DNA of 63,876 bases, filler included, from Folioceros fuciformis (GCA_049999805.1; 16 parts of 16 records of this genome joined end to end with filler, not necessarily neighbours in it), one strand, 5' to 3'; numbered from the whole stretch's first letter, positions 27,305 to 57,480 are shown. Numbers and translations are program-made. The notes: generated by a model not told the origin, from the sequence alone.

Positions 27305-27547
27305 ATGGCGGAGCTTGCTGCTGTAGTCCTTGCCCTGGCGATGGTTCTCTGTGCTTGGATTCTCCGCTGCCGTCAGTCATGTGCAGTCTGCAGTAATTTG
27401 CCAGGAAACAGTCTGCCGAGGAAGAGCTGGAGCTGGCACACTCGAGGTGGAGATTTGTGCAGGGTTTTCCACAACTGGCGCCTGATGCTCCATTCCGCTG
27501 CCTCCCAAACTGTTTTGACAGGTTCATGTATGCTGGCTGCGACTTAA
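27305..27547 (+). CDS. Antisense small membrane-protein ORF of copia element A
   Basis: MAELAAVVLALAMVLCAWILRCRQ...; hydrophobic N-terminus with LAL-x6-WI; may continue after a frameshift into 27457-27666. Confidence 0.55.
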   Translation: MAELAAVVLALAMVLCAWILRCRQSCAVCSNLPGNSLPRKSWSWHTRGGDLCRVFHNWRLMLHSAASQTVLTGSCMLAAT

Positions 27548-30500
27548 CTGATGACGGGCGGCAAATTATCCGCTATGGTACGTACCCTGGTGCAATTCCT
27601 CCCACTGCAGCTGTGTTTGATTGGATTTCTGACTGTAGGTGTCTGAATTGTGCAGAGCCTTGGTAGCGCTACTCTACATAGATACCTACCAGAAGATTCC
27701 ACCCTTCGTGAGGTGCTGCATGGGTAGAAAAAAGGAATGCTAGCTAGGTGGACAGTACTAGTGTTTAGGGCTCAGGATCCTCCACTAACCCCATTGCAGC
27801 TGCAAATTTTTCATGCTTCTCTCTGGGGAGTGGTTTTGTGAGCAGGTCTGCAATGTTGTTGTGGGTAGACACGTGTTGTAGGTTAGCATGCCCTTCACTC
27901 ACCACTTGTCGTATGAAGTGGTGTTTGATATCTATGTGTTTCGTTCTGGCATGCAGGACAAGGTTTTGGGTGAGTGCTATGGCAGACTGATTATCGCTCA
28001 GGAGGAGCGTTGGTGCTGTTTGCCCTTCACCAAGACTTGCCAGTAGCTCTCTGCAGTGAATGATGTCCTGTGCCGCAGTCGTTGCAGAGATGTATTCTGC
28101 CTCAGTGGAGGACAGTGCTACCACTGATTGTTTTTACTGTGCCAAGATATAATGGTAGCCTGGATCTTGTCTTGTCCTAGCATCATACAGTGTGCAGAGA
28201 TGGAGCGGCGGCTGTCTGAGTCTGCCGCCCAGTCGGCATCACAGAAGCAGGTGAGCTGTAATTTGCTTGGTCTTCGTTTATACAGCAGTCCATGCCTCGG
28301 AGAGCCGCCAAGGTACCTCATGCACCTTTGAACTGCTAGCCAGTGTGCTGGTCCAAAGTTTGACAGAAATTGAGAGATCACACCCACAGCATGGGAGAGC
28401 TCAGGGCGCGTCCAGTTGCGGAAATAGATAAGCGCTCCCACTGCTTGCCTGTACGGAGTTTTCTCCATCTGTGTACGTTCCTTCTCATTTTTCGGGCATT
28501 GTTCCAGTGTAAGCTTCTCACCCATGGCCATTGGCGTTGCAGCAGGCGTTGCATTCTGCATTCTAAACCGTGCAAGGACCTGAACAACAAACTGTGCTTG
28601 GTGGATGAAGATAGTGTGCTTACCCAAGTTTTGACGTATTTGGATGCCAAGGAACCATGTGAGCTGACCTAGATCTGTCATCTGGAACTCTGATGTGAGT
28701 ATATTTTTGACTTTGTCCATTTGTGAGGAGTTACTGGAAATTATGACAGCGTCATCTACATACAGTGCAAGGTAAGCAATTCCATTTTTGTTATGCAACT
28801 TGTAGACATTAGAATCTGCAGTGCTTTGGACAAAATCGCATCCTTTTAAATAGGTATCTATGCGTTTGTACCACGCACGTGGTGACTGTTTTAGCCCATA
28901 GAGTGTCTTAATGAGTCTACATACCTTGTCTGGATGTTTTGGGTCAACGTACCCCTCAGGCTGACGCATGTAAATTGTTTCCTCCAGATCTCCATTCAAG
29001 AAGGCGGTTTTTACATCCATATGTTGCAGCAAGTAATCATATTGTGCTGCAATTGCTAGCAAAGTGCGTATTGATGTAGCTCGAACTACTGGAGAAAAAG
29101 TTTCAGAGTAGTCGAGTCCTTCAACCTGGCTGTAGCCACGGGCCACCAGCCTGGCTTTGTATCTAGCTATACTCCCATCTGCTGCCTTTTTCAATTTGAA
29201 GACCCACTTGCAGGTCACTGCTTTCCTGCCAGGTGGTAAGTCCTCTAGTTCCCAAGTTTTGTTGTCCATAATGGACCTGTATTCTTATTCTATGGCCTCG
29301 TGCCACTTGTCCTTCTCAGGAGAGTTAATTGCTTCATGGTATGTTTGGGGCTCGCCCATATCAATGGGCATATCTTCTTGGACTAGAAAACTTTGGTAAG
29401 AGTAAGGGATAGTACTCCACTCATACGGAGACGCAGTGTGATGCCTTGTACTGCGACGAGGAGCAGTTTCTTCTTCAGGTTGGTCAGGCTCATGCATATC
29501 GGGTTCTGCATCAAGTGCTGGTTCCTCTTGCTGCACCACGTCATCTGAGGGTAATGCATCATCGAGTGTGCTATCAATGCCATCTTGCCCTATTTCCATG
29601 TCTTCATCAGGGAAGTCTGACCGAATGCCATAACTATCACTGTCCTGCTGTGGGACAGGTGATCCTGCAGGGTGCACTGGCTGTGAGAAGGAGGTACTGT
29701 CTAACAGAGTTGTAAACTCTTCGTCATCACTTGTGTTGTTGTTGTCAAGGTCATCAGAATGTGCTTCAGAATGTGGTTCTGTCTCGGGCTGATTTACTGA
29801 AGGGGTAAGTAGGGGTTTTTCGTTGAACACTACACTACGTGCATGTACAGTTGTTCTGGTTTGTGGATCTAGCAGTTTATAACCCTTTATCCCTTCAGTG
29901 TATCCAACAAACAAGTATTTCTTTGCTTTGTAATCTAACTTTACCCGTTGGGTTTCTGCAAGGTGAGCATATGCGGGAGATCCGAATATGCGTAAGTGGT
30001 TGATGCGAGGTTTGTTGTTAGTCCATCTCTCGAAAGGTGTTGAGCCGGTAAATGCTTTAGTAGGCAGTCGGTTTCTAATATATGCCGCTGTAACTACAGC
30101 TTCACCCCAGTAACCTCGTGTGAGGCCGGACACCTTGAGCATAGCCTTGGCAGGTGATTGGAGGTGCTTGTTATTAAGTTCAGCCAATGGGTTTTGAGCA
30201 GACGTATAAGGTACAGTCAACTGCCTGTGAATGCCTAATTCCTTGCAATAATCTTGGAATGCTAGTGACGTATATTCCCCGCCATTGTCACTGCGCAGGG
30301 TTTTTAACTGCTCTCCAGTTTGCCTCTGGGCAAAAGATACATATTCCTTAAAGCATCCAAGAGTCTGGCTCTTGTTCTTGAGCAGGTAAACCACGACATA
30401 CCTGCTCCAGTCATCAACAAACGAGAGAATATACAGCGCACCTCCTAGGGTTGCAGTGGACATTGGGCCACATAAATCGGTATGTACAACCTCCAGTAGT

Positions 30501-32319
30501 TTTGTTGCCCTTGTTGGGTTATCATCCGAGTATGGAAGGCGTTGATGCTTGGCAAAAACACACGCCTCACAGAACTGCTTCTCAGCTGACTGGAGCACAA
30601 ACTTTTCTCTGTAAAGTGTTGTGCTGGCCACCATAGACTTGATTTTTTCGAAGTTGGCATGGCCCAGTCTGCAGTGCCATAGCATAGCAGCATCCTTTTG
30701 CTTGGCTTCCTGGCTGGCACAGACTTGTGCATGTGCAAGAGGAAGACCATATTTGGAGGTAATGTTGAGTTGATATAAATCGTGGAGAGGTGTTCCTTTC
30801 GCTAACACTTTGTTTTTGTGCTTAGGGTCAGTGACTAGACACTGAAGACCAGTGAAGGAAACATTCAATGTGTGCTGTGAAGTCAACTTGCGGACTGAGA
30901 CAAGGTTCTTCACCATAGAAGGTACATGCAACACATCCTCTAGCACTAGTGTGGTGCTATCACTCAACATAACTGGGACTGACCCAGTGCCCTCTATTTG
31001 TAGGCCGCTGTCATCGCCAAGAAGAACGAACTGACCAGGTGAAATAGACCTGTATTCAGAGAAGGATTTCTTGCAATGACAGATATGTGCAGATGCACCT
31101 GAGTCTATGAACCATACGTGTTTGTTTGACGCGGTAGAGACCATGCATACTGCTAGGATAGGGTTTCCCTTACGTTGTACCACATTAGATGCTGGTTGTG
31201 GCACACGCCTGGGCTCTCCAGCCTTTTTCTTGCGGCAGTCGGCTTCCCAATGGCCAGGTATGAGACACCAATTGCAGGGTCCCTTCCTTTTGGTTGATGC
31301 AGCTTGTGCTGGACGTTTCTTAAACGCAGTGTTGTTGTTTGGTGTCCAGGACTGCCGTGGTGGGTGTCTTCTGGGACCCCTGTTTGCATACAGTGCCCTT
31401 GTTGAAGACTCTCCTCGGGAGGTGCCACCTAGGTTAACAGTTCTGGTTGACTCTTCTTCGAGAAGAGCACCAATTACATCCGCAAGTGTAACATCCGGTG
31501 GCTGACCTGCCTGAGCATTCTGTGCTGCAAGTCTTAATGCCGAACTCTGGTTGCTTACAAAAGTGCGGTAACTGGGAGGAAGAGAGAGAAGGAGGGCAAC
31601 GGCTGCCTGCATCTCTGTGGTCTTCGTCCCACTCGAGGTAAGTTTGGATCGTAGCTGTCGAAACTTTACCACATGTTGTTCCACTGGTTCATTTTCACGC
31701 ATCTTACAAGTATAGAATGCTCTTGTTGCTCCAACTAGAGATGAGCCATTGCTGACTTGATAAGTGTGTGTTAGTGAGTCCCATGCCTCTTTGGTGTTCT
31801 CCACGTCTTGAGTGTGAGACATCATAGATCCATCCAGTGCGGACTGGATCACTCCAAGTGCTCTTAGGTCCAGTTTTTCCCAAGCCTCGATTTGTGCAGC
31901 AGTCGAGGTAGCAGCTGCAGGCTTAGGTACAGTTCCAGTGACAACCCCCCACAGGCCATTTTCTTTTAGGATTGTCTGGACTCTAAGTGACCAAATGTCA
32001 AACTGGGAACCTGAGAAGCGATCTTTTTCTTTGAAATCTATTTTCAGGTGAGTGACTGTTGCCATGTTTGCTAGAACTTGATTTGCAAGTGCTGCTGCTA
32101 CTAATTCAGCCTGTTTCTTTCGTGTCTTTTTCTGTCGGGCTCTTTGAATGCGATCAAGGGCTGGATCTACCCTAGATGTACTACTGCCTTGTGAAGATGA
32201 AGTGGAAAAAATGGAAAGTGGGTCTGAAGGGTCTGTAGGAGGTGAGTTGCCTCTACTGCTACCTATGCCCTTTGGCTTGCATGTGTCTGTACCCCTTCCC
32301 TTTCCTGACATGTAAAATT

Positions 32320-32886
32320 TTACAAGACTTCAGTAGTACCATACCCGAGCGGCCTTGCATGCTCAGTGCAGCAAAGATGAGTTGCTCGAATTGCCTCAAT
32401 CATTTTCATGAGAGGTGTATGCTCCAAGATGTGAACAGGTGGACCCGAAACCTGAACCGGTGCAATCAAGATTTGAAGCGACATGTTTGTCTCACTGTCA
32501 GAGGAATTCACTTGAATAGTATTCTTCAAAGATGTCTCTGCTAAAATGACATCAGTTGGTGTTGGATATGGATTAAAGTCGTAGGACTTGGAACGTACAA
32601 ACTCGCGTGATCTCTGCTCAGAGATTGTGCGTGCGTTCTGAATGTATTGCCTAATCTGACTTCTCTGTGAGGCTAGTGGATCTGGTTTCTGGTGTTGCTG
32701 ACAGCATTGTGCGTTGCAACGCTTATACTGACGCTTATGATTGCTGTGCGTGTGCGGAGGGTTGAGATTGCAGTGGGTGTCAAAGAAACGATGCAAGTTC
32801 TGCAGGTGAACATCCTCCGGAGCACGGCGGCGGCCAGAAAGGAGATCAAAAGGGGGCTGCTTGCCTCTACCTCGCGCTCTCGGCAT
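32320..32886 (-). CDS. Extra ORF upstream of gag (ORF0) in element A
   Basis: ATG-initiated 188-aa ORF between PBS and gag, sense strand; basic and Cys/His-rich. Confidence 0.45.
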   Translation of the reverse strand: MPRARGRGKQPPFDLLSGRRRAPEDVHLQNLHRFFDTHCNLNPPHTHSNHKRQYKRCNAQCCQQHQKPDPLASQRSQIRQYIQNARTISEQRSREFVRSKSYDFNPYPTPTDVILAETSLKNTIQVNSSDSETNMSLQILIAPVQVSGPPVHILEHTPLMKMIEAIRATHLCCTEHARPLGYGTTEVL

Positions 32887-33235
32887 AGCGTGCAGTCAGT
32901 CGTAGTAGTGGCTGACTACATCTGCTAGAATTGCATCGGCCATCGCGCCAAACCTGATGAGTGAGACCCGGAGTGCAGAGATCGCAGCGCAGAAATCTTT
33001 GTGGCTGAGATTCCGGGTGCAGTTGTTACTCTTACAGGTTTCACAGTCGCGCGGTGGCGACGCGTCCTCCATCACCGCTCTGATACCATAAAGATTAGGA
33101 TCGAGGAGGCAAGGAGATCGAGATCTGGCAAGGCGNNNNNNNNNNNNNNNNNNNNNNNNNNNNNNNNNNNNNNNNNNNNTTAATTAATTAANNNNNNNNN
33201 NNNNNNNNNNNNNNNNNNNNNNNNNNNNNNNNNNN

Positions 33236-35348
33236 AGCTTGGAACGTCTTGAAACAGGGAAATGCCTCAGGTTTGTGTTTGAGGAAGTAAAGGTGGGTCC
33301 AGTGACTGAAATCATCTAGCAGGACAAACATGTATAATTTGCCTGATATAGTTGTTATCTGCATCGGTCCACAAAGGTCAGCATGTACCAACTCAAGGAC
33401 ACGGGATGTTTTGGTATGGGATCTTGGATAAGGTTGGCTGGCGTGCTTGCCTACGACACAGCCGGGACCTAGAGGTAAAGCTCCTAACTTAGGAGGTAAC
33501 CCTAAAACCAGATTTTTTGTGGACATTCGCTGCATGCCCTGCAGATGTAAGTGGGCTAAGCATAAGTGCCATAAAGTAGTTGTAGCATCTGTAGCTACTA
33601 AACTATGTGTGGTGGTTGTTGAACCTAGTGACTCGGGCAGAATGCTTGAAGCCACATAAAACAACTTGACACTTTGAGGATAAAATAATTGCACTAACTG
33701 CCCGGAGGCGAGTCTAAAGGAGATATGACAGCCTTTATGTGTGAAGGTAATCTTGTTGTTTGGAGATCTAGTAGCTTGCGTAACTGACAGCAAGTTGTGT
33801 GTTAGTGCAGGAACGTGCAGGACGTCTTTTATGAAGACTACATGATTTTGAAGCTGCACTTTTACCACTCCCTTACCAACAGCCATATGTGGAGAGCTAT
33901 CTCCTATGTAGACAAGTTGAGGAGCAGGCAAAGAGGTATACTGGAAAAACCAATCCCTCCTAGGTGACATGTGCTCTATTGCTCTACTGTCAAGGAGCCA
34001 CAAATCTTGAGAAGGATGTTTAGAATCCAAGTTTTCAGGCAGAGCAGTGAAGACGTAGGAAGGGTCTTGTCCAGCTTGTGCAGTGTTAACTGAGGCTGGT
34101 GCCGAATTAGGGTTGTGAATCCCTGCAGCTTGTTCCATTTCTTTTTCCTACATTCAGGTGCTATGTGACCTATTTTTTGACAATAGTGACAAGTCTTGTT
34201 CTTATGCGCAGGATTATTAGGAGGAGGACGGTGAGTTCCTCTAGAAGTAGAAGTAGAGGATTTACTAGTTTGATTCCAGCATTTCCTACCACTTGCAAAG
34301 AGAGCGGAGGTAGTATTCCTAGAGGTGCTGGAAATAGTGTTACCTTGTCTTAGTCTAGTCTCATGCATAATCCTACTGATGAGTGTAGTTAAGGTTAAAG
34401 GATTATAAGTTGTTACACTTCTGGTTTGTGGAGCGATGAAGTTTCCCCACGAAGGAGGTAAAGCTCTGAAAAGGTGCATCACTTGTGTTTCATCGTCTAG
34501 TGTTAGACCTGAGGATATGCAAGAATCTAAGGGCCCTTACCATGTCTCTAGAAAATCTAGGATTGAATTTCCTTCTGCCAATTTTAGGAATGATAGCTGT
34601 TCCTGGGCGTGCAACTTAAAGGCCATGCTGCTTTCTACATAGGTAGATGCCAGTTTATCCCACATTTGTTTTGATGTGGTTAGTCGTTTGATTATAGGGA
34701 TTAATCTATCTCCTACGTGCAGGAGTATGTCGCAACGGGCTTGTGCATCTTTGAGTTGCCAAGCAGGTAGGTCAGCATGACCTACTGCTGGCTGTGCTTC
34801 AGAGCCTATTACTACAGGCCATAGGGAATTTCTTAAGAAGAGCATTTCTAGCCTGGTTGCCCATGTGTGATAATTGACACTAGTTAGCGTATCAATCTGA
34901 TATGCCCTTGAAATGGGCTGTGGTTGATTAGCCATTGGGCTAGATCACCAAGATGTTTATGTTTGGAAGTTTATGATCAATGTTGACTAGAATGTTTGAA
35001 TTTCCATTTTCTATGTTGAGTAGAAAGTTTGAATTTCTCAGAGCATTCCGGACAGAATTTTTGTGTTCTGTCCATTGAGTTTTTGTATTACTGGCACAGA
35101 GTCAAAGTCTGTCCAAACTTGTAATGTATTCTTGGCATGCTCTAGGATGTATGCTCTAATACCATGAACCAAAGCGATCTAGATTAGAGACACACGACAC
35201 ACACGGAGAACAACAACAAGTAGAATGTTTTATTATGAGCCTGAAAAGGCATTATACAAGAGGAGAATGAAGAGTCACGTTTGTTCACATAGCGTCCCTA
35301 AACAAATGGAGAAACGAGCTTCACGTAAAACCTCACCAGTTCCACACA
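33236..35348 (-). mobile_element. Ty1/copia 5' half (gag, PR, partial IN), degenerate
   Basis: PBS-like TGGTATTAGAGC 35153-35164; putative LTR ~35165-35348; gag 34537-34935 and 33976-34482 (CHYCQKIGHIAPEC); PR/IN WLLDS..HADLCGP. Confidence 0.9.
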
Positions 35349-35990: not shown

Positions 35991-37244
35991 ATGAGACCTC
36001 GTAAGGAAAAGGATCCTTGGCAGTACATTGTTCAATGTGGCTACCTTGTAATTGAAATGAAAGGTGAAGGAACTTTTGGAAAAGTTTGTTCTGCCAAAGA
36101 TGTGAAAAGAAGGAAAGATGTGGCTGTAAAAAAAGTTACATGTAAAAATCAGAGGAGAACATCAATGCTTTATATTTTACGAGAGATAGCATTACTCAAA
36201 GTATTGCATCATCCAAGTATTATTAAATTAGAGACAATTATATGTTCACCAAGGAAAAGGTTACCTGACATTTATATAGTAACAGAATTAATGGAACATG
36301 ATCTCTATGAAGAGCTGCGAAACACTCAAGAGTTTCCTATTCAAAAACAAAAAAATTTACTCTACCAAATACTTCAGGGCGTGGCTTATTTGCATGCAGC
36401 AAATGTCTTACACCAAGACTTAAAGCCATCGAATTTATTGGTGAATTCTCAAGGTGAACTTAAAATTTGCGATTTTGGATTGGCTCGATTTCTTCCCGAA
36501 GGTTGTAATTCCATAGTGCAAAATCATCCATATAATATAGGAACTAGACCTTATTGTGCTCCGGAGCTTTGCACAAAGGAAAGTCCAAGATATTATACTC
36601 CAGCAATTGATATATGGAGTGTGGGATGTATATTTGCTGAAATCTTGCAAAGAGGGCTTTTGTTTGGAATGTCGAATAATAATGAGATGCAGTTACAGTT
36701 GATTAAAGATTTTCTCGGAGTTGAAAATACAACAACCCCAATGCCTGTAAAAGATGCTTTCGAACTACGATTCCCAAAGGCTGATCATGCTGCTATGTCC
36801 TTACTTAGACAACTGCTTGCCTTTCATCCTCAAGATAGAATAACAGCCGAGCAAGCTCTACAACATCCTTTTTTTCAAGATTTTGATCAAGTGTTTAGAT
36901 CTTATGTGGACAAAGACTTCATGAATAGGGAACTAGAGTTTGAAAATTTATCCACCGACGCATTGAAGAATTATTTTACTCGTAAAATGTCAGAACATGT
37001 TGGAATAAAAGACTCCAAACATGTACGCAAGAGGAAGATGAGGGACATTGAAATGCAAGAACGTGTCAAAAGAAGAAAGGTGGCACATATACCAAGTAGT
37101 AATTTACAATGTAATTATGAAAGTAGCATATCTAAGGATGATCCAAATGATCCAACTTACCAACCTTATAAAAAACCTAAAAACATGGGTATGAGGAAAA
37201 CGAAAGCTGGGAACTTGCGAAACGTTGTCAAAAGGAGATTATAG
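35991..37244 (+). CDS. Intronless MAPK-like (CMGC) Ser/Thr kinase, group D-derived, divergent
   Basis: 417 aa: GEGTFGKV, VAVKK, REIALL, HQDLKPSN, DFG, GTRPYCAPE, DIWSVGCIFAE, FPKADHAAMSLLRQLLAFHPQDRITAEQAL; basic C-tail. Confidence 0.88.
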   Translation: MRPRKEKDPWQYIVQCGYLVIEMKGEGTFGKVCSAKDVKRRKDVAVKKVTCKNQRRTSMLYILREIALLKVLHHPSIIKLETIICSPRKRLPDIYIVTELMEHDLYEELRNTQEFPIQKQKNLLYQILQGVAYLHAANVLHQDLKPSNLLVNSQGELKICDFGLARFLPEGCNSIVQNHPYNIGTRPYCAPELCTKESPRYYTPAIDIWSVGCIFAEILQRGLLFGMSNNNEMQLQLIKDFLGVENTTTPMPVKDAFELRFPKADHAAMSLLRQLLAFHPQDRITAEQALQHPFFQDFDQVFRSYVDKDFMNRELEFENLSTDALKNYFTRKMSEHVGIKDSKHVRKRKMRDIEMQERVKRRKVAHIPSSNLQCNYESSISKDDPNDPTYQPYKKPKNMGMRKTKAGNLRNVVKRRL

Positions 37245-38576: not shown

Positions 38577-41500
38577 CCTACTTCCGCTGCCCAAGAGCGG
38601 AGCGAGAGTGGCAGGGTCCAACCCTGCCCAGATTTGAAGCGGTGCCTCTTTCCTTGCATCCCCTGCAGATTCTCGCATGTAGCTCTTTTGATTGGTGCAG
38701 CTAACCTGTCATTTCACACCACCATGACACGGCAATTAAGGGCAGTTAGGGTTTGTGAACATGAAGCGTTGTCCATGCCTTTTGAACATGAAACGTTTTT
38801 TTAATTTTTTAGGGTTTCATGAGTCTGTTCACGGCAAACATGAGTGGTATGCTGAGGAGCTCAGCATGAGCAGGGTCCAGCACTTTTTTGAAAACCATAG
38901 CTTTTGATGCTCATAGGTGCCTTATGACCACAACCTCACAGCTGAATGCGCTAATCAATAGCTTTAGCAACCTTAGTTTGCAGCCTGCACCTATCAGAAA
39001 CATGGCAACACAACAGTCAGTTTCCTTTAGTTCAGATGTCAAGGACAAGGATAGGTTTAGAGGTACTGATTACTCTATCTGGCGAGTACGGATGAAAACC
39101 ATCCTCACAGCACGTGGTGTCTGGTCGAGTGTCGATGGTACTTTTAAGAAACCTGACCCAGTAGCCAAACCTGATGAGTATGCTAAGTGGGAGCATAATA
39201 ATGGAGTGGCTATGGCAGTCATTGTTAATGGGCTTGATGCAGTTTTGATTCCCAACGTTGAATTCCTCACATTGGCTGAAGAAATTTGGAATCAGCTTGA
39301 AAAGACCTACCACACAACCACAATGGCAACATTGTCCGCTGTCCGTATGGAGTTCTACACATTGCGGATGAAAGAAGGTGACAAAATGGCTGCACATACC
39401 AGCAAATTTCGTCATCTTCGAGCTCAGATTCAGTCCATCACGAAAACACAGATGACGGAGTCTGAGGCTGTCTCCCAGCTGCTCACGAGCCTGCCACCCT
39501 CTTACCAATCTTTTGTCACCAGTTACCAGAATGGCCCTGTTGCAGCAGCTGCTGCAGGAGGGACACAAGCTGCAGCCATCACCATGGAAGACGTAATCGG
39601 AGCCCTCTACCAAGAGGAGCAAACCCGCTTGACTTCGGCAGGCTTACACAAACAATCCAAAGCCGAAAGGGCATTAGCTGTGAATTTTCGCCCCAAAGGA
39701 AAGGGCAAATTCAGAGGGGGAAATTCAGCACAAACCAAGGACAGGCCTGAACCCTCAAGCTCAAAATGACCAGGCACATGCAATTGGTGTGGCATACCTG
39801 GCCATTGGGCACGCGAGTGCCGAAAACGCAAAGCTGGTGAGCCCCAGAAGCAGGCTAAACCTGCTGCAAGAGTTGCAGTGAAGGACAAACCTGTCGAAAA
39901 GGCACCAGTGAAAATTCTCACCATATGCTTGTCAAGTTCGACACATGATGATGAGAGCTGGTTCCTCGACTCCGGGGCTACCACGCACATCTACAAAAAG
40001 AGGGAGTTGTTCACTTCCCTCAGCCTTGTTCATGTCCATGAAAAGGTCCTCCTTGGTGATGAGCAGTCTAGGACTAGTCTGCATATTGAAGGCAGAGGCA
40101 CGTGTGTTTTCAAATTGAAAGATAACACAGACCTCACACTCGAAGATGTTCTCTTCGTACCCAGCATGGCTAAAAATCTCATGTCCATGAGTCAGCTCAT
40201 GCGTTTATGTACCTTCACCATGTATGCAGATTCTAAGCACTGCTTATTCTATAGAAGTACATCTCCTAGTAGATGTGTCTTTAAGGGGATTCTTGACAAT
40301 TCCCTTTACCGCTTGGACATAACCTGTTCACAACAGACAGCCGGTCAGCATGCTGTACATTCCACTGGTGTATCCTCACTTAGACCTGAGCAGGTAGCAG
40401 TCTTGTGGCATGCGAGATTAGGTCACGTGAATAGACGAAAATTGATAGATATGTCTATAACTGAACGCCATAGAGAACCCCTGCCCAAATGTTTCAAAAA
40501 CTTACCTCTATGCGAGTCGTGCATATTAGCTAAGCAGAAAGAATCACCTTTCCCTAATGCACCTGCACAAAGAGCCACACAAGTGCTTGAGTTAGTCCAT
40601 GCTGACATATCAGGAAAGATCCATTCCCCATCACTAGGTGGATCCCAATATTTTTTCACATTGACAGACGACTACAGCAGGTATACATGGACCTTTCCTA
40701 TGCGCCTGAAAAATGAAACCTTTGAGTTTTTCAAGGACTGGCTTCAAACTGCACAAAGGCAATCTGGAATGCTGGTCAAAACTCTAAGGACTGACAATGG
40801 CACGGAGTTCATAAACTCATCTTTCGACAGCCTACTTCAGGAGCATGGGATCCTCAGGCAGCTTACGGTCCCCTACACACCCCAACAAAACGGTGTGTCA
40901 GAGCGCAAAAATCAGACTTTGCTTGGGATGACAAGAAGCATGCTGATTTGGGCTGGTTTACCTCAAGGTTACTGGGCGGAGGCTGTGGTAACAGCCACCT
41001 ATATCCTCAACAGGGTCCTGACAAGTTCAGTCCCTCACAAGACACCTTATGAAGTTTTCTGGCACAGGAAACCATCGCTACTACATCTTCGTGTTTTTGG
41101 ATCACGGGCATTTGCCTATATATCTGTTGAGAAAAGACGAAAGCTTGACCCTCGAGCACAAGGACTACGTTTTGTCGGCTACAGCGAACGGACTAAGGCC
41201 TATAAGTTGTACAACCCCAAAACTGGATCTATGATCTTAGCTCGAAGTGTCACTTTTCTTGAGCCCCATGCCCCTGCTTCACAAGAGACGGCAGAACATT
41301 CAGATCAGTATATGACTGATAAATTAGACCTGGATGTTCTGGAGAACGAGGGGGCTGCCTCTACTTACCCCCTTGATGACATGGACTCTGAAATTGCTGA
41401 CCCAGTGGAGGATTTTATAGATGAGTCCGCTGAGTCTCCTACTGCCGATGATCAACCACCTGTTGCACTTGATGTGCCACACCCTGATGTCAATAATGCT

Positions 41501-43604
41501 GATCATGACAACAACCTGAATGTGCAGCCTGACCTGGATGATGTACTTGAGATTAATGATCTCTCTGTTGATGAGGGGGATGCTGTCCCCATCCCAGATT
41601 ATGAGGGGGACATACCCGCACCTCATGCACCTCAAGACATTGAGGAATCCCGTGATGACGAGCCCGTGCTTAGACGTTCTACACGTCACAGGCCACCTCC
41701 TAACCAATGGGCAGAGCCCCGATATGAATCCATTGACTTCCGAAAAACCTCTCTAGCGCAAGTTGTTGCCTTGGCTACTACTAGCTCTGAAATTCCAGAT
41801 GAGCCTACCACCTTACAGCAGGCCTTTACTGGCCCACAGAGTGCACAGTGGAAGGCTGCAGTGGAGGACGAGTACCAGTCCCTCATCAAAAATCAGACCT
41901 GGGTACTTGCAGACCTCCCACCTGGAAGAAAGGCAATCAGCTGTAAGTGGGTTTTTAAACTTAAGCTTAATGCACAAGGACAAGTGGCCAGATACAAAGC
42001 AAGGCTCGTGGCTCGCGGGTTTACCCAAGTTGAAGGTCTCGATTACCAAGAGACCTTCTCTCCTGTCGTTCGCACTCAGTCCATAAGAATCCTTTTTGCA
42101 TATGCTGCCGAATTTGATCTGGACCTACAGCAAATGGACGTTTGCACAGCATTCTTGTATGGTGCCCTCGAAGAAGAATTGTACATGTTGCAGCCTGAGG
42201 CCTATGAGGACAAACAGCACCCGAACAAGGTGTTAAAACTTCTCAAATGTATCTACGGTTTAAAACAAAGTGGGCGCGTTTGGTATATAACGATGCACTT
42301 GTACCTGATTAGCATCAACTTCGTCCAAAATGCTGCTGATAGCAATGTGTATAAGCTCACACAAGGAGCGTCTGTTGTCATCTTGGCGCTTTATGTGGAC
42401 GATGTTATATTTGCCACAAACGATCAAACGCTGTTAGCAAGTGTCAAGGCCAAACTCAGCAGTAAATTTGACATGAAGGACATAGGAGAGCTTAAATTCT
42501 GTCTAGGAATCCAATTGCTTCGTGTGAGGAAAGAAGGGCTACTGTTTATCCATCAGTATAAGTACATAAAAGAGATACTCAGAAAGTTCAACCTTGACGA
42601 GGCCAGGCCAGCTACCACTCCCTTTGCTGCTGGTACAAAGCTGATTAGGGATCAGTGCCCCCAATCACAAGCTGAGAAAAAGGACATGCAGGATGTACCT
42701 TACAGGCATGCTCTTGGATCCTTGATATTCGTCGCAAATTGGACTCGCCCTGACATACAGTATGCGGTTAGTACAGTTTCGCAATTTCTAGAAAATCCTG
42801 CTAGGGTTCACTGGGTAGCTGTTAAAAGGATCTTTCGTTATCTCAAAGGCACACACACCTATGGACTTATGTATAAGAGCACAGGCCAGAAACAACTTAT
42901 CTTGCGAGGCTTCACGGATGCTGACTGGGCATCAGACTCGGATGCACGTAGGAGTCTTTCTACATACTGTTACTTGTTGGGCTCAGCAGCTGTCACATGG
43001 AGCTGCAAAAAACAGGCATCTGTTGCTCTAAGTTCCTCTGAGGCCGAGTATAAATCTCTAACTGAAGCAGCCAAAGAGGCTGAGTGGGAATGCAGCTTCC
43101 TCAATGACTTGGGGCAGCCGCAGGAGAAGCCAACACTTGTACTCTGCGATAACACCGCAGCCTTAGAGTTAGTGGAAAGTTCGAAATTTCATGCTAGGAC
43201 TAAGCACATCGAGGTACAACACCATTACATCCGCAACGTGGTACACAGAGGTGTCCTTAAATTGGGTTACGTACAGACAGATGAGAATACTGCCGATATC
43301 CTTACTAAAGGATTGCCCAAATATAAGCACTATTACCACATGGAAGGCATGGGACTGAAGGACTACTCAGCCTACTTCAAGTAGCAGTCTCTTATCTTGG
43401 TTGTTGATGGGGATGGCAGCCTCTTTTGTGTCTGCAGATATGTTCCATCCCTGGCAGCCAGATACTTGTGACTGCACAGCATAACACATTTAAAGGCGAT
43501 ATCAGTTCCCGTGAATTCTTACACACAGTCTGCAAAGCACAAGAGCAGGTGGATGAAGCTTACATGATTGATTAAATCACCTGACAGCCTGTGACTGGAC
43601 AACC

Positions 43605-43982
43605 CTACACCTCATCCTTCAGCCTGCTGAGCATCTTTGCTACACCTTCTAGCTGATCCACCAGGCCCTGCATGTTTTCCTTGTCTTTAGCAGGTGTGGA
43701 TGGGTTGACAGCGACCTCTTCCTCTGCCATTTTGCCCCAGACAAGTGTGATGTTCAGCTCAACGTGATACCCAGCGATGGTTGCGGACTGCCCGGTGTTG
43801 TAGCGGCTCTCCCACTCCCAGCCTCAGGCCACATCTTCCCGGGACGCCGGTTGTGTGGCAGAATCATAGCTTGCCCCACTCCTCATCCTCATTTTCAGCT
43901 GTAACAGCAGGATCCACAGGCGTGTGACGACGAAGAGCGCGAGCTGGGCTTCTGCAGTGAGCACAGCGAGGTGAAGATCCAT
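43605..43982 (-). pseudogene. Antisense small membrane-protein ORF of element B (one internal TGA)
   Basis: MDLHLAVLTAEAQLALFVVTRLWILLLQLK...EDVA*GWEW...LVDQLEGVAKMLSRLKDEV*; a 125-codon frame with a single stop at 43824-43826. Confidence 0.55.
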
Positions 43983-44359
43983 TCTTGTAGTGGCTGCATT
44001 GATTACAGAACGGAAGCTGGGTCGTCTACTCAACCACCGGATTATGCCCGAGAGTGCCCCAGCGCGAGAGACTGTTCCTCGTGTTTTCTTCCAGCTGCCT
44101 GGTTCTCGTGGACAGTCCTTCGTTTCCAGGGTTTCGTGCTTCAAGCTAACCGTGGTTAGTTTAAGAGGGGGTGTTAGCGCAGAATGGTTAAACTTAACCC
44201 ACGGTTAGGGATATATATATAGTTTATATATAATTAGGGGTTGTCTAGTGAAAGGACATNNNNNNNNNNNNNNNNNNNNNNNNNNNNNNNNNNNNNNNNN
44301 NNNTTAATTAATTAANNNNNNNNNNNNNNNNNNNNNNNNNNNNNNNNNNNNNNNNNNNN

Positions 44360-49700: not shown

Positions 49701-49934
49701 CTGCACAGCATCACACAAATATGGCTTGCATGATCACCTAGCTATCAACCATCTCAATGCCAAATAAGAATGACTTCCCAACAAAGGTGAACCTCCTTAC
49801 ATTATTCATGACATACTCCACATTGGCCACACGCNNNNNNNNNNNNNNNNNNNNNNNNNNNNNNNNNNNNNNNNNNNNTTAATTAATTAANNNNNNNNNN
49901 NNNNNNNNNNNNNNNNNNNNNNNNNNNNNNNNNN

Positions 49935-51464: not shown

Positions 51465-51964
51465 NNNNNNNNNNNNNNNNNNNNNNNNNNNNNNNNNNNN
51501 NNNNNNNNTTAATTAATTAANNNNNNNNNNNNNNNNNNNNNNNNNNNNNNNNNNNNNNNNNNNNTGTGTTCTTCCACCGCTGATCATGCCGATACATGTA
51601 TAATTATATTATGGTATCAGAGCGGGATTCTCTCCCGTTCGGATTCTCGTCCGCTCCAGCGATATGGTCTAACACTACGGATACAATTGCTGGACGGACA
51701 AACCGGCGGCGATCCTTACCCGGAATCTTACAATTCTTGAAGAGAATAAGGTATGCTTTTTTTTGCGGCAACAGCGCTGAGAACCTGAACACAGTAGGGA
51801 TGGACCTGTCCAGCGGGAGCGCCCAGTCTGGATCCCACCACCGCTCAACAAGCCCTGGACAGAGGAGGAGAAACAAACTTATTCTAGGATGCTCAAACAA
51901 TTCTGGCAGGCGAGCAGTAAATGGGAACGTGCTGCTAGGCACAACAAGTGATTGCTAAGGCAAT

Positions 51965-52465
51965 ATGACGGGCAGCAAGAAGAAGTGCAAACCTTTTTCT
52001 TATCCACGCTGCCCCTCACCATTTCCTAATTGCTGCCCCAGACAGTTTATTAGTACTCTTCCACAGTTTTGCCCTGTACAGCTACTTCCCATCTGCTGTC
52101 ATCAAGCCTGTACCTCACGATTTGTGACCAATCCATCCCCTGTTGATCTAAAACACCTGATATACAGAATTGAACTCCTTGAAGACCAGGCATTTGATAA
52201 TAAGGTTAGCCACCATAGAGATATAACCTATCTCAATTCTCAGATTAGCACTCTAAGCACTAAATTACAACAACTTTCAGCCAGCTTAGAACCTTACCTT
52301 GTGGATAGACCAATATCACCAAAAGTGGCTGTGGTTTCTCGTTGTGATCCTGTGTTTTGGTTTAATGGTTGTCCCCGAACCTGTAGAGCAGATTTTAGAG
52401 TCAATCTCTACCATTTTTGGGGAAGAGCCCCAAGCCCCTCAAACATTATGTATCTAGTTTGGTAG
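51965..52465 (+). CDS. Extra ORF upstream of gag (ORF0) in element C, Cys-rich + coiled-coil
   Basis: 166 aa, ATG-initiated; HLIYRIELL...RDITYLNSQISTLSTKLQQL. Confidence 0.55.
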   Translation: MTGSKKKCKPFSYPRCPSPFPNCCPRQFISTLPQFCPVQLLPICCHQACTSRFVTNPSPVDLKHLIYRIELLEDQAFDNKVSHHRDITYLNSQISTLSTKLQQLSASLEPYLVDRPISPKVAVVSRCDPVFWFNGCPRTCRADFRVNLYHFWGRAPSPSNIMYLVW

Positions 52466-52565
52466 GTTCAGCATCCTACCATGTATGTGGTCCCCACCAC
52501 ACAGGCTGCCTCGAGATCCTCGCAATCACACATCACCTAGAAACCCTAATCCACAACAGCCAGTC

Positions 52566-55500
52566 ATGTCAGGAGCATCAAGCAGCAGCAGTGGAAACAC
52601 TGTCATCAACAATAACACCAAGGTCGATATCAAGGATAAAGACCGGTTTAATGGGAGTGATTATCCCATATGGGAAATGCGCCTGACAGCCATCCTTGAG
52701 GAACATGATCTCATGGACCTAGTTACTGGAAAGACAGGAAATCCAGCAATTGTACCTGCAGGAGGAACTGTATGTACACCCGAGGCAATTGCAGCATGGG
52801 TAAAACAGGATAAGCGTGCACGTAGCATCATCCTGTCAGCTTTGGATAGAAATATGATCCAACATACACAGGGGCAAGCTACTTCAGCAGCTGTTTGGAA
52901 GGTGTTCCAAGACATGTTTGCAGCGAAAGACTCCATGTCCCTGCTCAATGCAACCAGACTCTTTTACGGACTACGCATGAAAGATTCAGATAGCGTAGAG
53001 CATCATGTGCACAAATTCCGTACCTTAAGAGCAAAGTTGTCTTCATGTGGGCAAGATGTAACGGAGTTGCAAGCATCAATTGTTCTCCTTACCTCATTAC
53101 CACCAAGTTATAGAGCTTTTGTAAGCTCACAAACTTCTGTTCTCAGGCAAACAGTGAAGTCGCCATCAGCAGGTAGCACACCTGCTATTACACTCTCAGA
53201 GATTGTAGGTGCACTTTTGGAGGAGGAATCCAGTAGGACAGCAACTGGACGTAGCCATCATCTGACTTCACAAGTCCTCTATACCCAGAGAGGACGTGGA
53301 AGAGGGCGTGGACGTGGTAGGGGCCGTCCCTATCAAGCTCTTTCCTTTTCACAGGGCCAGCGGAAGCAAAAGGGCACTTGTCACTGGTGCCGCATCCCTG
53401 GACATTTTGAGAACGAGTGTAGGAAGAAACGGGCTGGAGAGCCCCGTCGAGAAGCCCCACCTATTGAATCTCACCTGGTGACCCGTGGGCAAGCAAGCAA
53501 CACAGTGACACAGAATGTTAAGGCTCCTACAATCCTAGCGGTCTGTCTATCCCTCACAAAAGCTGATAACAACATGTGGTTTTTGGACTCTGGGGCGACC
53601 AACCACATCTGTATATCAAGGGAAAAATTTGTTACTTATCTTTCAGCCCCGACTAATCAGTTTGTGTTGCTTGGGGATGATAGTGGCTTATCCATAGCCG
53701 GATATGGAGAAGTGTTATTTCCACTTAATGGAGGAAAGCAAATCCAGTTGTTTGGAGTTCTTCATGTACCTAATATGACCAAAAATCTGTTGTCTGTTAG
53801 GAAGCTTGTCACAGACCATGATCTCTACATCTGCTTCACACCTACAGCTTGCTTGGTCACGTCTGCACGTAACCATTCAATTATCTTAGGTGAAGGGGTA
53901 ACTTACAATGATCTGTATCGTTTTGACATGACCCCTGCCAATCCTCACAGTCTCGTTGTAGATGCAAAGTCCGATGTAGACAACAGTTTCTTATGGCACA
54001 GCAGATTCTGCCACCCTAGCGTTACATATATTCGCCAAGTGGTCAATAAACCTGAGTTGTATAAAGATCCCATTTCTTTCAAAGTTCGGGATCACCTGTT
54101 TTGTGAAGATTGCCAAGTTGGCAAGCTAGCCCAGAAGCCCTATAATGATCCTGACCCTTCCAAGGCAACTGGCTTGTTAGATGTCGTGCATTCGGACGTC
54201 TGTGGTCCTATGTCGACAACGTCTTTTGGTGGTGCTGTTTATTTTCTAACTTTTCTTGATGAATGGAGCCATTACTGCTGTTTATACTTCCTACATACAC
54301 GCCAGCAAGTATATGACAGTTTCTTAGATTATGTGAGTATGGCTGAAACACAAACTGGGTATACTTTGAAGAAGCTGAGAAGTGACAATGCTAAGGAATA
54401 CCTTAGTTATGATTTCCAGTCGTATTGCAGACAGAAAGGCATCCTCCACCAGTTAACTGTTCCCTACCATCCTGCACAAAACTCCTATGCTGAGAGATAT
54501 AACCGAACATTGCAAGAACGCTGTAGGGCAACGTTGTCCTCAGCTGGTCTCACTCGTGGGTATTGGGCCGAAGCAATAGCAGCAGTGAATTATGTGCAGA
54601 ATCGTTTACCTGTCAAACCTTTGTTCACCTATACGCCTTTTGAACGTTGGTGTGGACATAAGCCAAGGATTGGTCATCTTCGCATTTTTGGTGCCGCTGC
54701 ATATGCATATATACCAGCCGACAAACGTGGTAAGATGGACAACAGAGCTACTAAACATGTGTTTATAGGCTATTCCGAGCAATCTAAAGGATACAAATTA
54801 TACAATCCCTATACAAGGCAGCTTACCTTAGCTCGAAGCGTGAGTTTCAATGAGAGTTTCATATTAACTTCACATCAGCACTCTGTTACAAGCCATCAGC
54901 CACTTTCAGAACAATCTGTTTATGGCCATACCCCGCCAAATCAAGTGGAAGACGACCAGCTAGACATAGATATCGCCATTTTTCCTTCAGATTTTCCGGA
55001 TACTCCTACTGTTCAGCAACTGCCACAGATCCATGCTCCTAATCCTCAGCCATACGTCAACTTACCTAACATCTCTGTTCTAGATCATCCAGAGTATGCT
55101 CCACAGGACACTGATGCCACATTACCTGAACAAGATATGGCAGAGGTACCTCCACATCCTGAATGTGTGCCTGAACCTGAACCAGAGCATCAGGTATTAC
55201 GTAGGTCAGCTAGGGTCCATCGTCCTAGGTCTGAGTGGTTAGAAAAACCGTATGAGCCAGGGGATACCCTAGCGTCCAGTCAACAGCACGCATTACCACA
55301 TACTAACCTTGCAGCTTTTACAAACACTGTAGCTTCTTCCATTTTAGATCCACCCAATACACCTGTCACATACCAGGAAGCTATCTCAGGTCCTCAAAAA
55401 GCAGCATGGCAAAAGGCAATCAACTCAGAGTATGATAGCATCATTTCTAATAACACATGGGAACTTGTTACCTTACCACCAGACAGGAAGGCTATAACCT

Positions 55501-56972
55501 CCAAGTGGGTTTTCAAACTGAAACTGCATCCCGATGGCTCGGTGGCTCGGTACAAAGCACGCCTTGTAGCTAGGGGCTACACTCAAGTTCAGGGTTTGGA
55601 CTACAACGAAACATTCAGCCCTGTAGTCAAGCCCACATCTATGAGAATCCTCCTTTGTTATGCCGTGAAAGAGAAGCTCATCGTCCATCAGATGGACGTT
55701 AAAACTGCTTTCTTGAATGGTCCTCTTGATGAAGTTATCTATATGCATCAGCCTGAGGGCTATATCAAGGATCCTGCAAAGGTATGCAAGTTACTCAAGT
55801 CACTTTATGGTCTAAAACAGTCAGCTAGAATATGGAATTCAAGAGCAGATAAAAAGCTCCGCAAACTAGGTTTTGTACCTCTAGTAGCAGACTGTAGTGT
55901 CTATGTTTTGAAACGTGCTAATCAGCTTTGCATAATAGCTCTTTATGTAGATGATAATTTTCTTTTTGCTAGTGATGAGCAAATACTTACAGAGGTTAAG
56001 ATGGAGTTGTCTCGGGAGTGGGACATGACAGATGTAGGTCCTCTCAAGTTTGCCTTAGGAATACAATTTAGCTTTAGCTTAGACAGGACCTGCGTCACCA
56101 TCCACCAAGCTCACTTTATCAGACAGCTGCTGTCAAAGTTTAACCTCTCACAACTCAATCCAGTAACTACACCTATAGCTACAGGTGATAAATTGTCTTT
56201 AGAAGACTGCCCTAAAACACCAGCAGAGACTGCAGAAATGGCATCTATTCCTTACAGAGAGGCTGTAGGTAGTCTGCTATACCTGGCAGGATGGACTCGT
56301 CCGGATGTGTCCCAAGCAGTAGGCATAGTTTCTCGCTTCCTAGCCAACCCAGGTAAGAAGCACTGGATGGCCGTTAAAAGGATCCTACGATATTTAAAAG
56401 GCACTCAAGACTTCTATATTCAATACACAGCAGCAGGGAATTCAACTCTTACTTCTTTCTCTGATGCTGATTGGGCTGGAGATGTTGATTCTAGGAAGTC
56501 TATAGCAGCCTATTGTCTTCTGTTATGTGGTTCTGCCATCAGCTGGCAGTCAAAGAAGCTAACTACCGTCAGCCTCTCTTCAACAGAGGCTGAGTATGGC
56601 GCTTTATCTTTAGCTGCACGGGAGATAGTATGGGTCAGACAATTTCTGGACGGCATCCATTGGCAGCAGCCCTCAGCAACATTGTTGAAATGTGATAACC
56701 AGTCGGCAATCGCTCTAACAGCGAATCCAGTACTGCATGCCAGATCAAAGCATATTGAAATACAGTTTCATTTTATCAGGCAAGCAGCAGAAACAGGGGT
56801 CATCCAGTTGGAGTATGTTCACACTTCTGAGAATGTCGCTGACTTACTGACAAAGGGACTACCAAAGGCCATACATGAGCAGCATCGAGCTACACTAGGA
56901 TTGCAAACATCAGCACAGACTTATCTGGAAGGGGAGAGTAGCCAAGCTACTCGTAAGAAGAGGGATGACTGA
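52566..56972 (+). CDS. copia gag-pol polyprotein (intact)
   Basis: Single ORF with gag, CHWCRIPGHFENEC knuckle, PR FLDSGA, IN HSDVCGP/LRSDN, RT YVDD and RNase H DADWAGD. Confidence 0.95.
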   Translation: MSGASSSSSGNTVINNNTKVDIKDKDRFNGSDYPIWEMRLTAILEEHDLMDLVTGKTGNPAIVPAGGTVCTPEAIAAWVKQDKRARSIILSALDRNMIQHTQGQATSAAVWKVFQDMFAAKDSMSLLNATRLFYGLRMKDSDSVEHHVHKFRTLRAKLSSCGQDVTELQASIVLLTSLPPSYRAFVSSQTSVLRQTVKSPSAGSTPAITLSEIVGALLEEESSRTATGRSHHLTSQVLYTQRGRGRGRGRGRGRPYQALSFSQGQRKQKGTCHWCRIPGHFENECRKKRAGEPRREAPPIESHLVTRGQASNTVTQNVKAPTILAVCLSLTKADNNMWFLDSGATNHICISREKFVTYLSAPTNQFVLLGDDSGLSIAGYGEVLFPLNGGKQIQLFGVLHVPNMTKNLLSVRKLVTDHDLYICFTPTACLVTSARNHSIILGEGVTYNDLYRFDMTPANPHSLVVDAKSDVDNSFLWHSRFCHPSVTYIRQVVNKPELYKDPISFKVRDHLFCEDCQVGKLAQKPYNDPDPSKATGLLDVVHSDVCGPMSTTSFGGAVYFLTFLDEWSHYCCLYFLHTRQQVYDSFLDYVSMAETQTGYTLKKLRSDNAKEYLSYDFQSYCRQKGILHQLTVPYHPAQNSYAERYNRTLQERCRATLSSAGLTRGYWAEAIAAVNYVQNRLPVKPLFTYTPFERWCGHKPRIGHLRIFGAAAYAYIPADKRGKMDNRATKHVFIGYSEQSKGYKLYNPYTRQLTLARSVSFNESFILTSHQHSVTSHQPLSEQSVYGHTPPNQVEDDQLDIDIAIFPSDFPDTPTVQQLPQIHAPNPQPYVNLPNISVLDHPEYAPQDTDATLPEQDMAEVPPHPECVPEPEPEHQVLRRSARVHRPRSEWLEKPYEPGDTLASSQQHALPHTNLAAFTNTVASSILDPPNTPVTYQEAISGPQKAAWQKAINSEYDSIISNNTWELVTLPPDRKAITSKWVFKLKLHPDGSVARYKARLVARGYTQVQGLDYNETFSPVVKPTSMRILLCYAVKEKLIVHQMDVKTAFLNGPLDEVIYMHQPEGYIKDPAKVCKLLKSLYGLKQSARIWNSRADKKLRKLGFVPLVADCSVYVLKRANQLCIIALYVDDNFLFASDEQILTEVKMELSREWDMTDVGPLKFALGIQFSFSLDRTCVTIHQAHFIRQLLSKFNLSQLNPVTTPIATGDKLSLEDCPKTPAETAEMASIPYREAVGSLLYLAGWTRPDVSQAVGIVSRFLANPGKKHWMAVKRILRYLKGTQDFYIQYTAAGNSTLTSFSDADWAGDVDSRKSIAAYCLLLCGSAISWQSKKLTTVSLSSTEAEYGALSLAAREIVWVRQFLDGIHWQQPSATLLKCDNQSAIALTANPVLHARSKHIEIQFHFIRQAAETGVIQLEYVHTSENVADLLTKGLPKAIHEQHRATLGLQTSAQTYLEGESSQATRKKRDD

Positions 56973-57258
56973 GTTACGGCCTAACAGGTTGCAGCAGCGT
57001 TTGGACATCCACGTATCGGGCATCGTTTGTGTGTTACGCACAGTTCAGTCCCTAGTGCCGAGCCTGCAGCACCCAAGAGCAACAGCTATTAGTCTTTGGA
57101 TGAAGCTGTCAAGTCAATCTAAGCAAAGGCGTAGTAGCAGATGGTTTCATAACACCACACTACCAGGCTTGCAGGCCGTGTCCACATCTTCATCTTCCGG
57201 CAGCGGTTGCATGCATGCCGCCCTAAAGACAGCAAGCTCAACCTCACTCGACTTGATA

Positions 57259-57480
57259 CTAGCGCGGGGAGGAGGCCGGCTGTTTTTCAGTTGAAGGCAT
57301 CATCTCAGATTTTCCCAGCAGCGCACCTCTGCGCTTGTGTTCCAGTTTTGTGCTGTGCTTGCTGCCTCTCTTGTTGTGTCGCGCATCAAGTTTAGGTGGG
57401 AGCACAATCCAGACGGCGAGGATGATCGCAAGAGCTAGCTCTAGCAGGTGAGCTGCGATCTGTGCATAAGCTCCAGCCAT
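57259..57480 (-). CDS. Antisense small membrane-protein ORF of element C
   Basis: MAGAYAQIAAHLLELALAIILAVWIVLPPKLDARHNKR...; TM-like helix with LAL-x6-WI followed by a basic tail. Confidence 0.58.
   Translation of the reverse strand: MAGAYAQIAAHLLELALAIILAVWIVLPPKLDARHNKRGSKHSTKLEHKRRGALLGKSEMMPSTEKQPASSPR

Follow-up and report, generated by a model that had tools for sequence, protein, structure and literature searches.

Short Antisense Open Reading Frames with Hydrophobic N-Termini beside the 3′ Long Terminal Repeat of Three Divergent Ty1/copia Elements from Folioceros fuciformis

Introduction

Open reading frames (ORFs) that lie between pol and the 3′ long terminal repeat (LTR), antisense to gag-pol, form a known class in LTR retrotransposons (aORF-3R, also eORF-3′R), and their function is described as unexplained in the available part of the source (PMC7264820). 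Examples of the class given there are gene23 of maize Grande, rice RIRE2, Silene Retand, and Botrytis Boty; Grande shows antisense transcription from its own upstream promoter, the product of gene23 is localized in the nucleus, and other members carry DNA-binding-type domains (PMC7264820). In this work, a window of DNA from Folioceros fuciformis (GCA_049999805.1), that is, the whole 63,876-base stretch that was analyzed, was found to hold three divergent Ty1/copia elements, here called A, B, and C, each of which has between pol and the 3′ LTR an opposite-strand ORF of 52–80 codons with a hydrophobic N-terminus containing the pattern LAL-x6-WI. The best single reading, which the sequences favor tentatively and at a strength short of probable, is a lineage-specific, dispensable antisense micro-protein with a predicted N-terminal membrane helix; if this reading holds, the ORFs would add a new form to the antisense extra ORFs already known in LTR retrotransposons. 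Grande, RIRE2, and Retand are large Ty3/gypsy elements whose ORFs run to hundreds of codons. Compared by description, the ORFs of A, B, and C differ from the class in their Ty1/copia host, in their length of 52–80 codons, and in having a putative hydrophobic helix as the only conserved part. They are like the class in position, in antisense orientation, and in the lack of similarity to known proteins, as far as the available text describes it (PMC7264820).

Copia elements are generally treated as gag-pol-only, and surveys of extra ORFs use cut-offs far above 80 codons. Some env-like ORFs of SIRE elements encode membrane-spanning segments. It has been reported that 582 Ty1/copia elements carry extra ORFs of at least 250 codons, and the premise of the original prediction for this DNA, that standard copia elements encode only gag-pol, was therefore too strong (PMC6317226, available part). 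Among the extra ORFs of Ty1/copia elements, the available part of that survey mentions a single lineage-typical one, the sense-strand ORF of SIRE; as an env-like ORF (eORF-3′F), it resembles the ORFs studied here in being a copia extra ORF between pol and the 3′ LTR that is highly divergent between families (PMC6317226). Unlike them, it is read from the sense strand and spans hundreds of codons; at this place, no long sense ORF is present in A, B, or C. Because only ORFs of at least 250 codons were counted, the plant survey, going by its available part, would miss those of A, B, and C (PMC6317226). A full-text literature search, which did not cover supplementary tables, found no description of a short antisense membrane ORF in copia elements.

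HIV-1 ASP has about 190 residues and more than one hydrophobic segment. By analogy, it may be taken as the nearest functional analogue: according to the available parts of the sources, it is likewise antisense near the 3′ end of a retroelement, is predicted to be hydrophobic or membrane-associated, has no known homologues, and has been debated for decades as to its reality (PMC12568219, PMC11281420). It differs in that ASP overlaps env in antisense, whereas the present ORFs are confined to the spacer past the pol stop, and there is no sequence relationship between them. Small single-pass viral membrane proteins, such as class I viroporins (e.g., HIV-1 Vpu) and the small hydrophobic movement proteins of plant viruses, have 50–100 residues, an N-terminal helix, an aromatic residue near the cytosolic end, and a charged tail; they are encoded on the sense strand and are defined by oligomerization together with channel or movement activity. 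The ORFs resemble these proteins in size, putative helix, and tail, by an analogy drawn from general knowledge, and differ from them in lying on the antisense strand; a profile search, the ESM Atlas, and Pfam gave no sequence or profile similarity between the two. If the reading of an antisense micro-protein is true, accessory genes of LTR retrotransposons would reach below the length cut-offs of surveys, the long pol–LTR spacers of some families would gain a concrete and testable function, and a simple system for antisense genes of retroelements, parallel to HIV-1 ASP, would become available; if it is not real, the case would serve for calibration, in that a trio of short hydrophobic ORFs can outscore several kinds of shuffles and would still have to be found in independent family members to be accepted as a gene.

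Position of the Antisense ORFs

The original prediction had placed ATG-initiated antisense ORFs at 27305 (+), 43982 (−), and 57480 (−), and all three were found as described. The features of the three loci, including the polypurine tracts (PPTs), are as follows.

27305..27547 (+), antisense ORF of A, 80 aa, MAELAAVVLALAMVLCAWILRCRQ..., end including the stop; hydrophobic residues 4–20, then RCRQ
43982..43824 (−), antisense ORF of B, 52 aa, MDLHLAVLTAEAQLALFVVTRLWILLLQLKMRMR...; hydrophobic stretch interrupted by Thr20-Arg21; ends in TGA
57480..57259 (−), antisense ORF of C, 73 aa, MAGAYAQIAAHLLELALAIILAVWIVLPPKLDARHNKRGSKH...; predicted helix 3–26, then a Lys/Arg/His-rich tail
27329..27360 (+), LAL-x6-WI coding block of A (CTT GCC CTG, 18 nt, TGG AT)
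43912..43943 (−), LAL-x6-WI coding block of B
57407..57438 (−), LAL-x6-WI coding block of C
27765..32311 (−), gag-pol of A, broken into ORFs 29285-32311 and 28118-29269
38888..43384 (+), gag (38888-39769) and pol (39878-43384) of B, separate ORFs
52485..56972 (+), gag-pol of C, intact ORF of 1495 aa
27106-27096 (−), PPT-like CTAAGTGGGAG of A, then the first 47 nt of the 3′ LTR, 27095-27049 (TATTGG...)
3′ LTR stub region of A, antisense direction, TATA-like TATATAAT
44163..44259 (+), PPT-like AAGAGGGGG of B (44163-44171), then the inferred LTR start TGTTAG (44172-) with TATATATA runs
57590..57644 (+), PPT-like AGAGGGCG of C (57590-57597), then the first 47 nt of the 3′ LTR, 57598-57644 (TATTGG...)

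All three ORFs thus run opposite to gag-pol in the interval from the pol stop to the 3′ LTR. With the LTR/PPT edges placed at 27095/27096 (A), 44171/44172 (B), and 57597/57598 (C), the ATGs are 210, 190, and 118 nt inside the edge, close to the range of about 110–200 bp that had been stated, and the pol-to-LTR spacers of 669 (A), 787 (B), and 625 nt (C) agree with the 0.6–0.8 kb given earlier, the figure for A requiring pol to be read through a frameshift to its true stop. Each of the ORFs begins with ATGG, and in B and C position −3 is A or G; in A, no ATG lies between the LTR edge and the ORF start.

Similarity of the N-Terminal Segments

The N-termini align without gaps over LAL-x6-WI, at offsets of +5 and +6 residues, with L, A, L, W, and I coinciding and basic residues following in all three, and this part of the original prediction is confirmed; so is the claim that the surrounding DNA lacks evident similarity, since the spacers gave no alignment (best blastn E 0.2). 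Scored as the BLOSUM62 sum of pairs over an ungapped three-way block of 20 residues, the alignment reaches 88, and the comparison with shuffled controls turned out in favor of the similarity. None of 400 dinucleotide shuffles reached this score (maximum 69; in 247 of the 400, at least one region had no ORF of at least 40 aa), nor did any of 200 with both strands considered, nor any of 300 local-composition shuffles in each of four settings (30-nt or 60-nt windows, maximum 70), which preserve the A-poor composition of the block (8–18% A vs. 22–27% overall). When triples were drawn from the actual 3′ regions of metagenome copia loci, 88 was reached by 25 of 1500 when relatives were allowed and by 0 of 3000 (maximum 80) after nucleotide-similar pairs were dropped. 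A better three-way block was not found on either strand.

In a leave-one-out comparison, each peptide was the top match of the other two among the 272 window ORFs of at least 40 aa, scoring 55, 57, and 64 where the next-best ORFs scored 35, 32, and 30. With amino-acid composition preserved, five identical columns within 12 residues were obtained in 2 of 1000 shuffles of the whole peptides and, when only the first 30 residues were shuffled, in 14 of 3000. At the DNA level, the window contains the motif exactly three times, only at these sites, against an expectation of 0.05 for a pattern that was defined post hoc. The observation is real and statistically unusual; in our reading, the signal consists mainly of equivalent sites that each code for a hydrophobic N-terminal segment in the same codon phase, together with a modest motif match.

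A separate likeness was seen in the sense frame between B at 43803-43856 (+), AALPLPASGHIFPGRRLC, and C at 57279-57332 (+), AVFQLKASSQIFPAAHLC, where 9 of 18 residues are identical; when A is added, 2 of 150 local shuffles do as well as the best 12-residue three-way block, and with four tests made this falls short of significance.

Hydrophobicity and Predicted Helix

The maxima of Kyte–Doolittle hydropathy over 19 residues (KD19) were ranked among the 232 window ORFs of 40–120 aa. The single-pass membrane helix of the original prediction is plausible for A (2.47, rank 2 of 232) and C (2.46, rank 3 of 232) and is doubtful for B, to which we return below. Local shuffles of stop-to-stop ORFs in 30-nt windows reached the observed hydropathy in 6 (A), 42 (B), and 0 (C) of 300 cases. 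In the 3′ regions of metagenome copia loci (60 of 80, those with at least 400 nt after pol), hydrophobic ORFs made up 9 of 176 on the antisense and 20 of 169 on the sense strand, so hydrophobic antisense ORFs are not a general trait of copia 3′ regions. AlphaFold2, run on C alone, gave one helix at residues 3–26, with a predicted local distance difference test (pLDDT) value of 80–91 over the block and 56–62 over the rest. In all three ORFs, the N-terminal flank is acidic or neutral and the C-terminal flank is net basic. A single N-terminal helix in A and C is therefore plausible as a structural model. The uncharged stretches are short, at 17 residues in A, 13 in C (20 counting His and Glu), and 9+8 in B, split by Arg, and because of this, a signal peptide is as possible as a membrane anchor.

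These lengths, nearer to the h-regions of signal peptides than to typical membrane spans, bear on a further explanation, in which a longer antisense gene is spliced, with the hydrophobic block as its signal peptide or first exon and its later exons deeper in the spacer, or in which the copies seen are remnants of such a gene that carry frameshifts. In B, the frame of the hydrophobic ORF reopens past a single TGA (43826-43824) into a 41-aa antisense ORF, MAEEEVAVNPSTPAKDKENMQGLVDQLEGVAKMLSRLKDEV, at 43730-43605 (−), whose codon usage is the second most gene-like of the 232 small ORFs, and acidic stretches (AEEELEL, MAEEEVAV, PEDEDVD) lie downstream in all three elements. However, in A and C, these stretches are out of the helix frame, the intact family C would require a frameshift or an intron, and the next-best antisense block in the remainder of the spacers is no better than local shuffles, 30 of 150 and 81 of 150 of which reach it. 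This explanation, in either form, is considered very unlikely.

Peptide-Level and Nucleotide-Level Conservation

The codons of Leu-Ala-Leu vary at all three wobble positions (CTT/CTC/CTA, GCC/GCG/GCT, and CTG/CTC/CTT in A, B, and C), a pattern that is not independent evidence because the alignment was picked at the protein level. Coding on the sense strand was rejected, as the exactly complementary frame holds two TAG codons in the intact element C, and so was RNA pairing between the 5′ and 3′ ends as the basis of the block, as no exact complement of at least 9 nt exists between the 5′ leader and the block. The original prediction had named a conserved sense-strand nucleotide motif as a possible source of the similarity, and this is not supported: the shared feature follows the codon phase of the antisense strand and is no contiguous nucleotide motif. 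With the wobble variation, the closed sense frame, the missing leader complement, and the lack of another antisense block taken together, a constraint on the peptide fits the data better than a constraint on a nucleotide motif.

The same data bear on the possibility that selection acts on the antisense transcript itself or on a cis-acting nucleic-acid element close to the PPT, with the ORF being incidental; double-stranded RNA that controls copy number would be one such role. Antisense promoters and non-coding antisense RNAs are known for several retrotransposons, according to the available part of one source (PMC7264820). In A and B, the LTR opens at its inner edge with bases that include TATA-like runs, and the PPT/LTR edges of A and C are conserved in nucleotides, with a 17-nt match of 82%. 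On the other hand, the similarity of the block sits at codon positions 1 and 2 with varying wobble bases, shuffles that keep the local composition fail to reproduce it, neither a significant nucleotide alignment nor a complement in the 5′ leader of the kind mentioned above was found, and a noncoding role offers no reason for a conserved hydrophobic reading frame. Among the explanations considered here, it is the least probable.

Lineage of the Elements and Searches for Relatives

A tree of reverse transcriptase (RT) and RNase H was built from 64 rows, comprising 5 window elements, 40 metagenome loci, and 19 database proteins; the other 40 of the 80 metagenome loci were left out, their best high-scoring segment pair (HSP) being short or containing stops. 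In this tree, A, B, C, a further window element, E, and one database protein, P0070, form one clade with a Shimodaira–Hasegawa-like approximate likelihood ratio test (SH-aLRT) value of 99, and the nearest named relatives of the clade are plant proteins. Inside the clade, B pairs with E and A with P0070, whose RT is 74% identical to that of A. In pol, A, B, and C are no more than about 40–53% identical to one another, so any unconstrained spacer sequence should be randomized. The description of A, B, and C as three divergent copia elements is thus upheld by the tree and by the order of Pfam domains given below.

19841-21646 (+), element E, sister of B in the RT tree

In E, the PPT/LTR start, TTAAGGGGG|TGTGTTAAACC, resembles that of B and lies at about 21800, only about 155 nt past the pol stop at 21646. 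On the same contig, a Ty3/gypsy-like integrase tail follows from about 22067, which makes the contig nested or chimeric. In the copia element D (pol stop at 5023), about 300 nt remain to the contig end and hold no comparable ORF. The antisense ORF is present in three of the four clade members with a 3′ end in the window, E being the exception.

Metagenome searches yielded 566 loci, of which 80 were kept; in pol, the closest of them to C shared 46% identity, and identity to A, B, or E stayed at or below 50% throughout. Of the 40 loci placed in the tree, none falls in the clade of A, B, and C, and the motif is absent from the downstream ORFs of 60 loci (176 antisense and 169 sense). Among viral contigs, one distant locus was found; among contigs of prokaryote genomes, there was none for the RT of A and two distant loci for the alignment query. 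Contigs of two public DNA runs repeat C almost exactly. Over 51565-57644, run X3, from the same sample, differs by 685 C>T and 672 G>A changes and almost nothing else, and one minority 1-nt insertion behind 57435 is among the variants listed; run X3 is probably bisulfite-converted DNA, and methylation data for these elements would then exist.

Proposed Mechanism and Its Weighing

In the preferred reading of a lineage-specific antisense micro-protein, A, B, and C would be deeply diverged families of one Ty1/copia lineage that keep a spacer of 0.6–0.8 kb between pol and the 3′ LTR, the LTR-proximal part of which would code on the opposite strand for an ORF of 52–80 codons. Only the N-terminal 20–25 residues would be conserved, as a hydrophobic helix with LAL-x6-WI that is preceded by an acidic or neutral flank and followed by a basic one. 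We infer that an antisense transcript starting in or just inside the 3′ LTR would be translated into a small accessory protein, which may insert into a membrane as a signal-anchor with the N-terminus out and the basic tail cytosolic; function would reside in the helix, leaving the tail free to vary. Given that the sister family E has no such ORF, it would be dispensable for the basic life cycle. A more far-reaching form, drawn by analogy, is a genuine antisense accessory gene, in which a signal-anchor protein of 50–80 residues would be expressed by a promoter, bidirectional or antisense, at the edge of the 3′ LTR as a copia counterpart of ASP- or Vpu-like proteins acting at membranes, for example in particle assembly, cell-to-cell passage, or interference with host membrane factors; this form is regarded as quite unlikely.

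Several results weigh against a conserved micro-protein. The similarity covers only about 20 residues and the tails are unrelated; E, although the sister of B, has no comparable spacer or antisense ORF, which means that the ORF is dispensable or was lost in E. The original prediction of a conserved clade-specific protein is partly supported. The KD19 of B is only 1.61 (rank 22 of 232), and its helix contains Thr-Arg. One upstream ATG in B and two in C lie between the LTR edge and the start. The codon usage is unremarkable, with ranks of 115 (A), 36 (B), and 74 (C) among the 232 small ORFs, and no second antisense block rises above the local shuffles. Pairwise, composition-adjusted BLASTP gave E values of 0.53 (B–C), 7.1 (A–C), and 0.15 (A–B) for the block, none of them significant, and in tblastx, chance HSPs in other frames were equal or better, the A–B block being outside the top 10. 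A word-indexed protein search gave no candidate for the ORF of C and one candidate for that of A, which did not score; a profile of the three N-termini had 0 matches at E ≤ 0.001 among 1,835,955,588 representatives; Pfam returned only TMEM51 at 13.9 bits, under the cut-off of 25.5; and the best score in the ESM Atlas was 0.84, under the level that counts. Among the public runs listed as containing C, none was RNA; run X4, guessed to be RNA, gave no contig on C, which is uninformative either way. Only three sequences are available, and the motif was defined after viewing them.

The BLASTP and tblastx results, the codon usage, the lack of the ORF in E, and the searches that gave no homologue also speak for a coincidence, in which common short ORFs happen to be hydrophobic in all three elements and the five-residue match was picked afterwards with a free choice of frame, strand, and motif. 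ORFs of at least 40 aa are indeed frequent, occurring in all three regions in 153 of 400 shuffles, and about 10% of the small window ORFs have a KD19 of at least 1.6. Pure coincidence has more difficulty with the three-way score, unreached in every shuffle setting and in the filtered real triples, with the hydrophobicity ranks of A and C at an equivalent place in related elements, and with the motif match, for which p is about 0.005 conditional on composition. A chance origin of the match is unlikely, but with only three sequences and a post hoc motif, coincidence as an account of the whole keeps an appreciable, if minor, share of the weight.

Structure of the Elements

Elements A, B, and C show the Pfam order Retrotran_gag_2, gag_pre-integrs, rve, and RVT_2, which corresponds to the Ty1/copia order gag–protease–integrase–RT–RNase H, the RNase H motifs being visible in the alignment. 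In A, gag-pol is broken at 29269/29285, and owing to a frameshift near 28118-28130, the true stop of pol is the TAA at 27767-27765 rather than at 28118. Primer binding sites (PBSs) are found in A and C, purine-rich tracts precede the LTR start, and the contig of B begins elsewhere and shows no PBS.

33077..33135 (−), last 47 nt of the 5′ LTR of A, then PBS TGGTATCAGAGC
51565..51623 (+), last 47 nt of the 5′ LTR of C, then PBS TGGTATCAGAGC

The sequence TGGTATCAGAGC is presumably the PBS for initiator tRNA-Met. This agrees with a published description (PMC6317226). The LTR edge of B was inferred from the PPT-like AAGAGGGGG|TGTTAG by analogy with TTAAGGGGG|TGTGTTAAACC of element E. As far as their 47-nt stubs go, the LTRs of A and C open with TATTGG (27095-27091, 57598-57602) and close with ...TTTA and ...ATTA (33089, 51611), not with the usual TG...CA.

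Composition of the Window

The window is a chain of 16 contigs of 1.2–8.6 kb each and no single chromosome stretch. Its 15 joints have the form N44-TTAATTAATTAA-N44 and carry three-frame stops on both strands (e.g., 26949-27048, 33136-33235, 44260-44359, and 57645-57744), and there are three separate 100-N gaps besides; since contigs are joined by linkers, neighboring features across a joint carry no meaning, and A, B, and C are not genomic neighbors. They lie on separate contigs, each of which is the internal region of one Ty1/copia family plus 47–88 nt of LTR, with one contig per family.

27049-33135, contig of element A
38072-44259, contig of element B
51565-57644, contig of element C

Exact 47-nt ends are common to several contigs (e.g., 8802-8848 = 14537-14583; 45642-45688 = 49788-49834), which points to a k=47 graph assembly of repeats. 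The contigs of A and C each match the internal region of an LTR element exactly, flanked on either side by 47 nt of LTR; as this is what such an assembler yields for a repeated element, each of the three contigs probably represents a family and not one copy, judging from assembler behavior.

Retrotransposon sequence fills almost the whole window, in which a scan with Rfam gave no match. A Ty3/gypsy-type pol in three ORFs (RVT_1, RT_RNaseH, rve, and SH3_Tf2-1) lies at 9331-12189 (−). Two contig stretches of 1154 nt, 6068-7221 and 7548-8701, are 98.8% identical, and short tandem repeats of 40–90 nt occur around 5894-5967 and 7322-7568. At 35991-37244 (+), an ORF of 417 aa runs without interruption and contains a complete protein kinase domain (Pkinase, E 4.7e-62); its 4.7-kb contig also holds a copia gag-protease fragment on the opposite strand (33242-34893).

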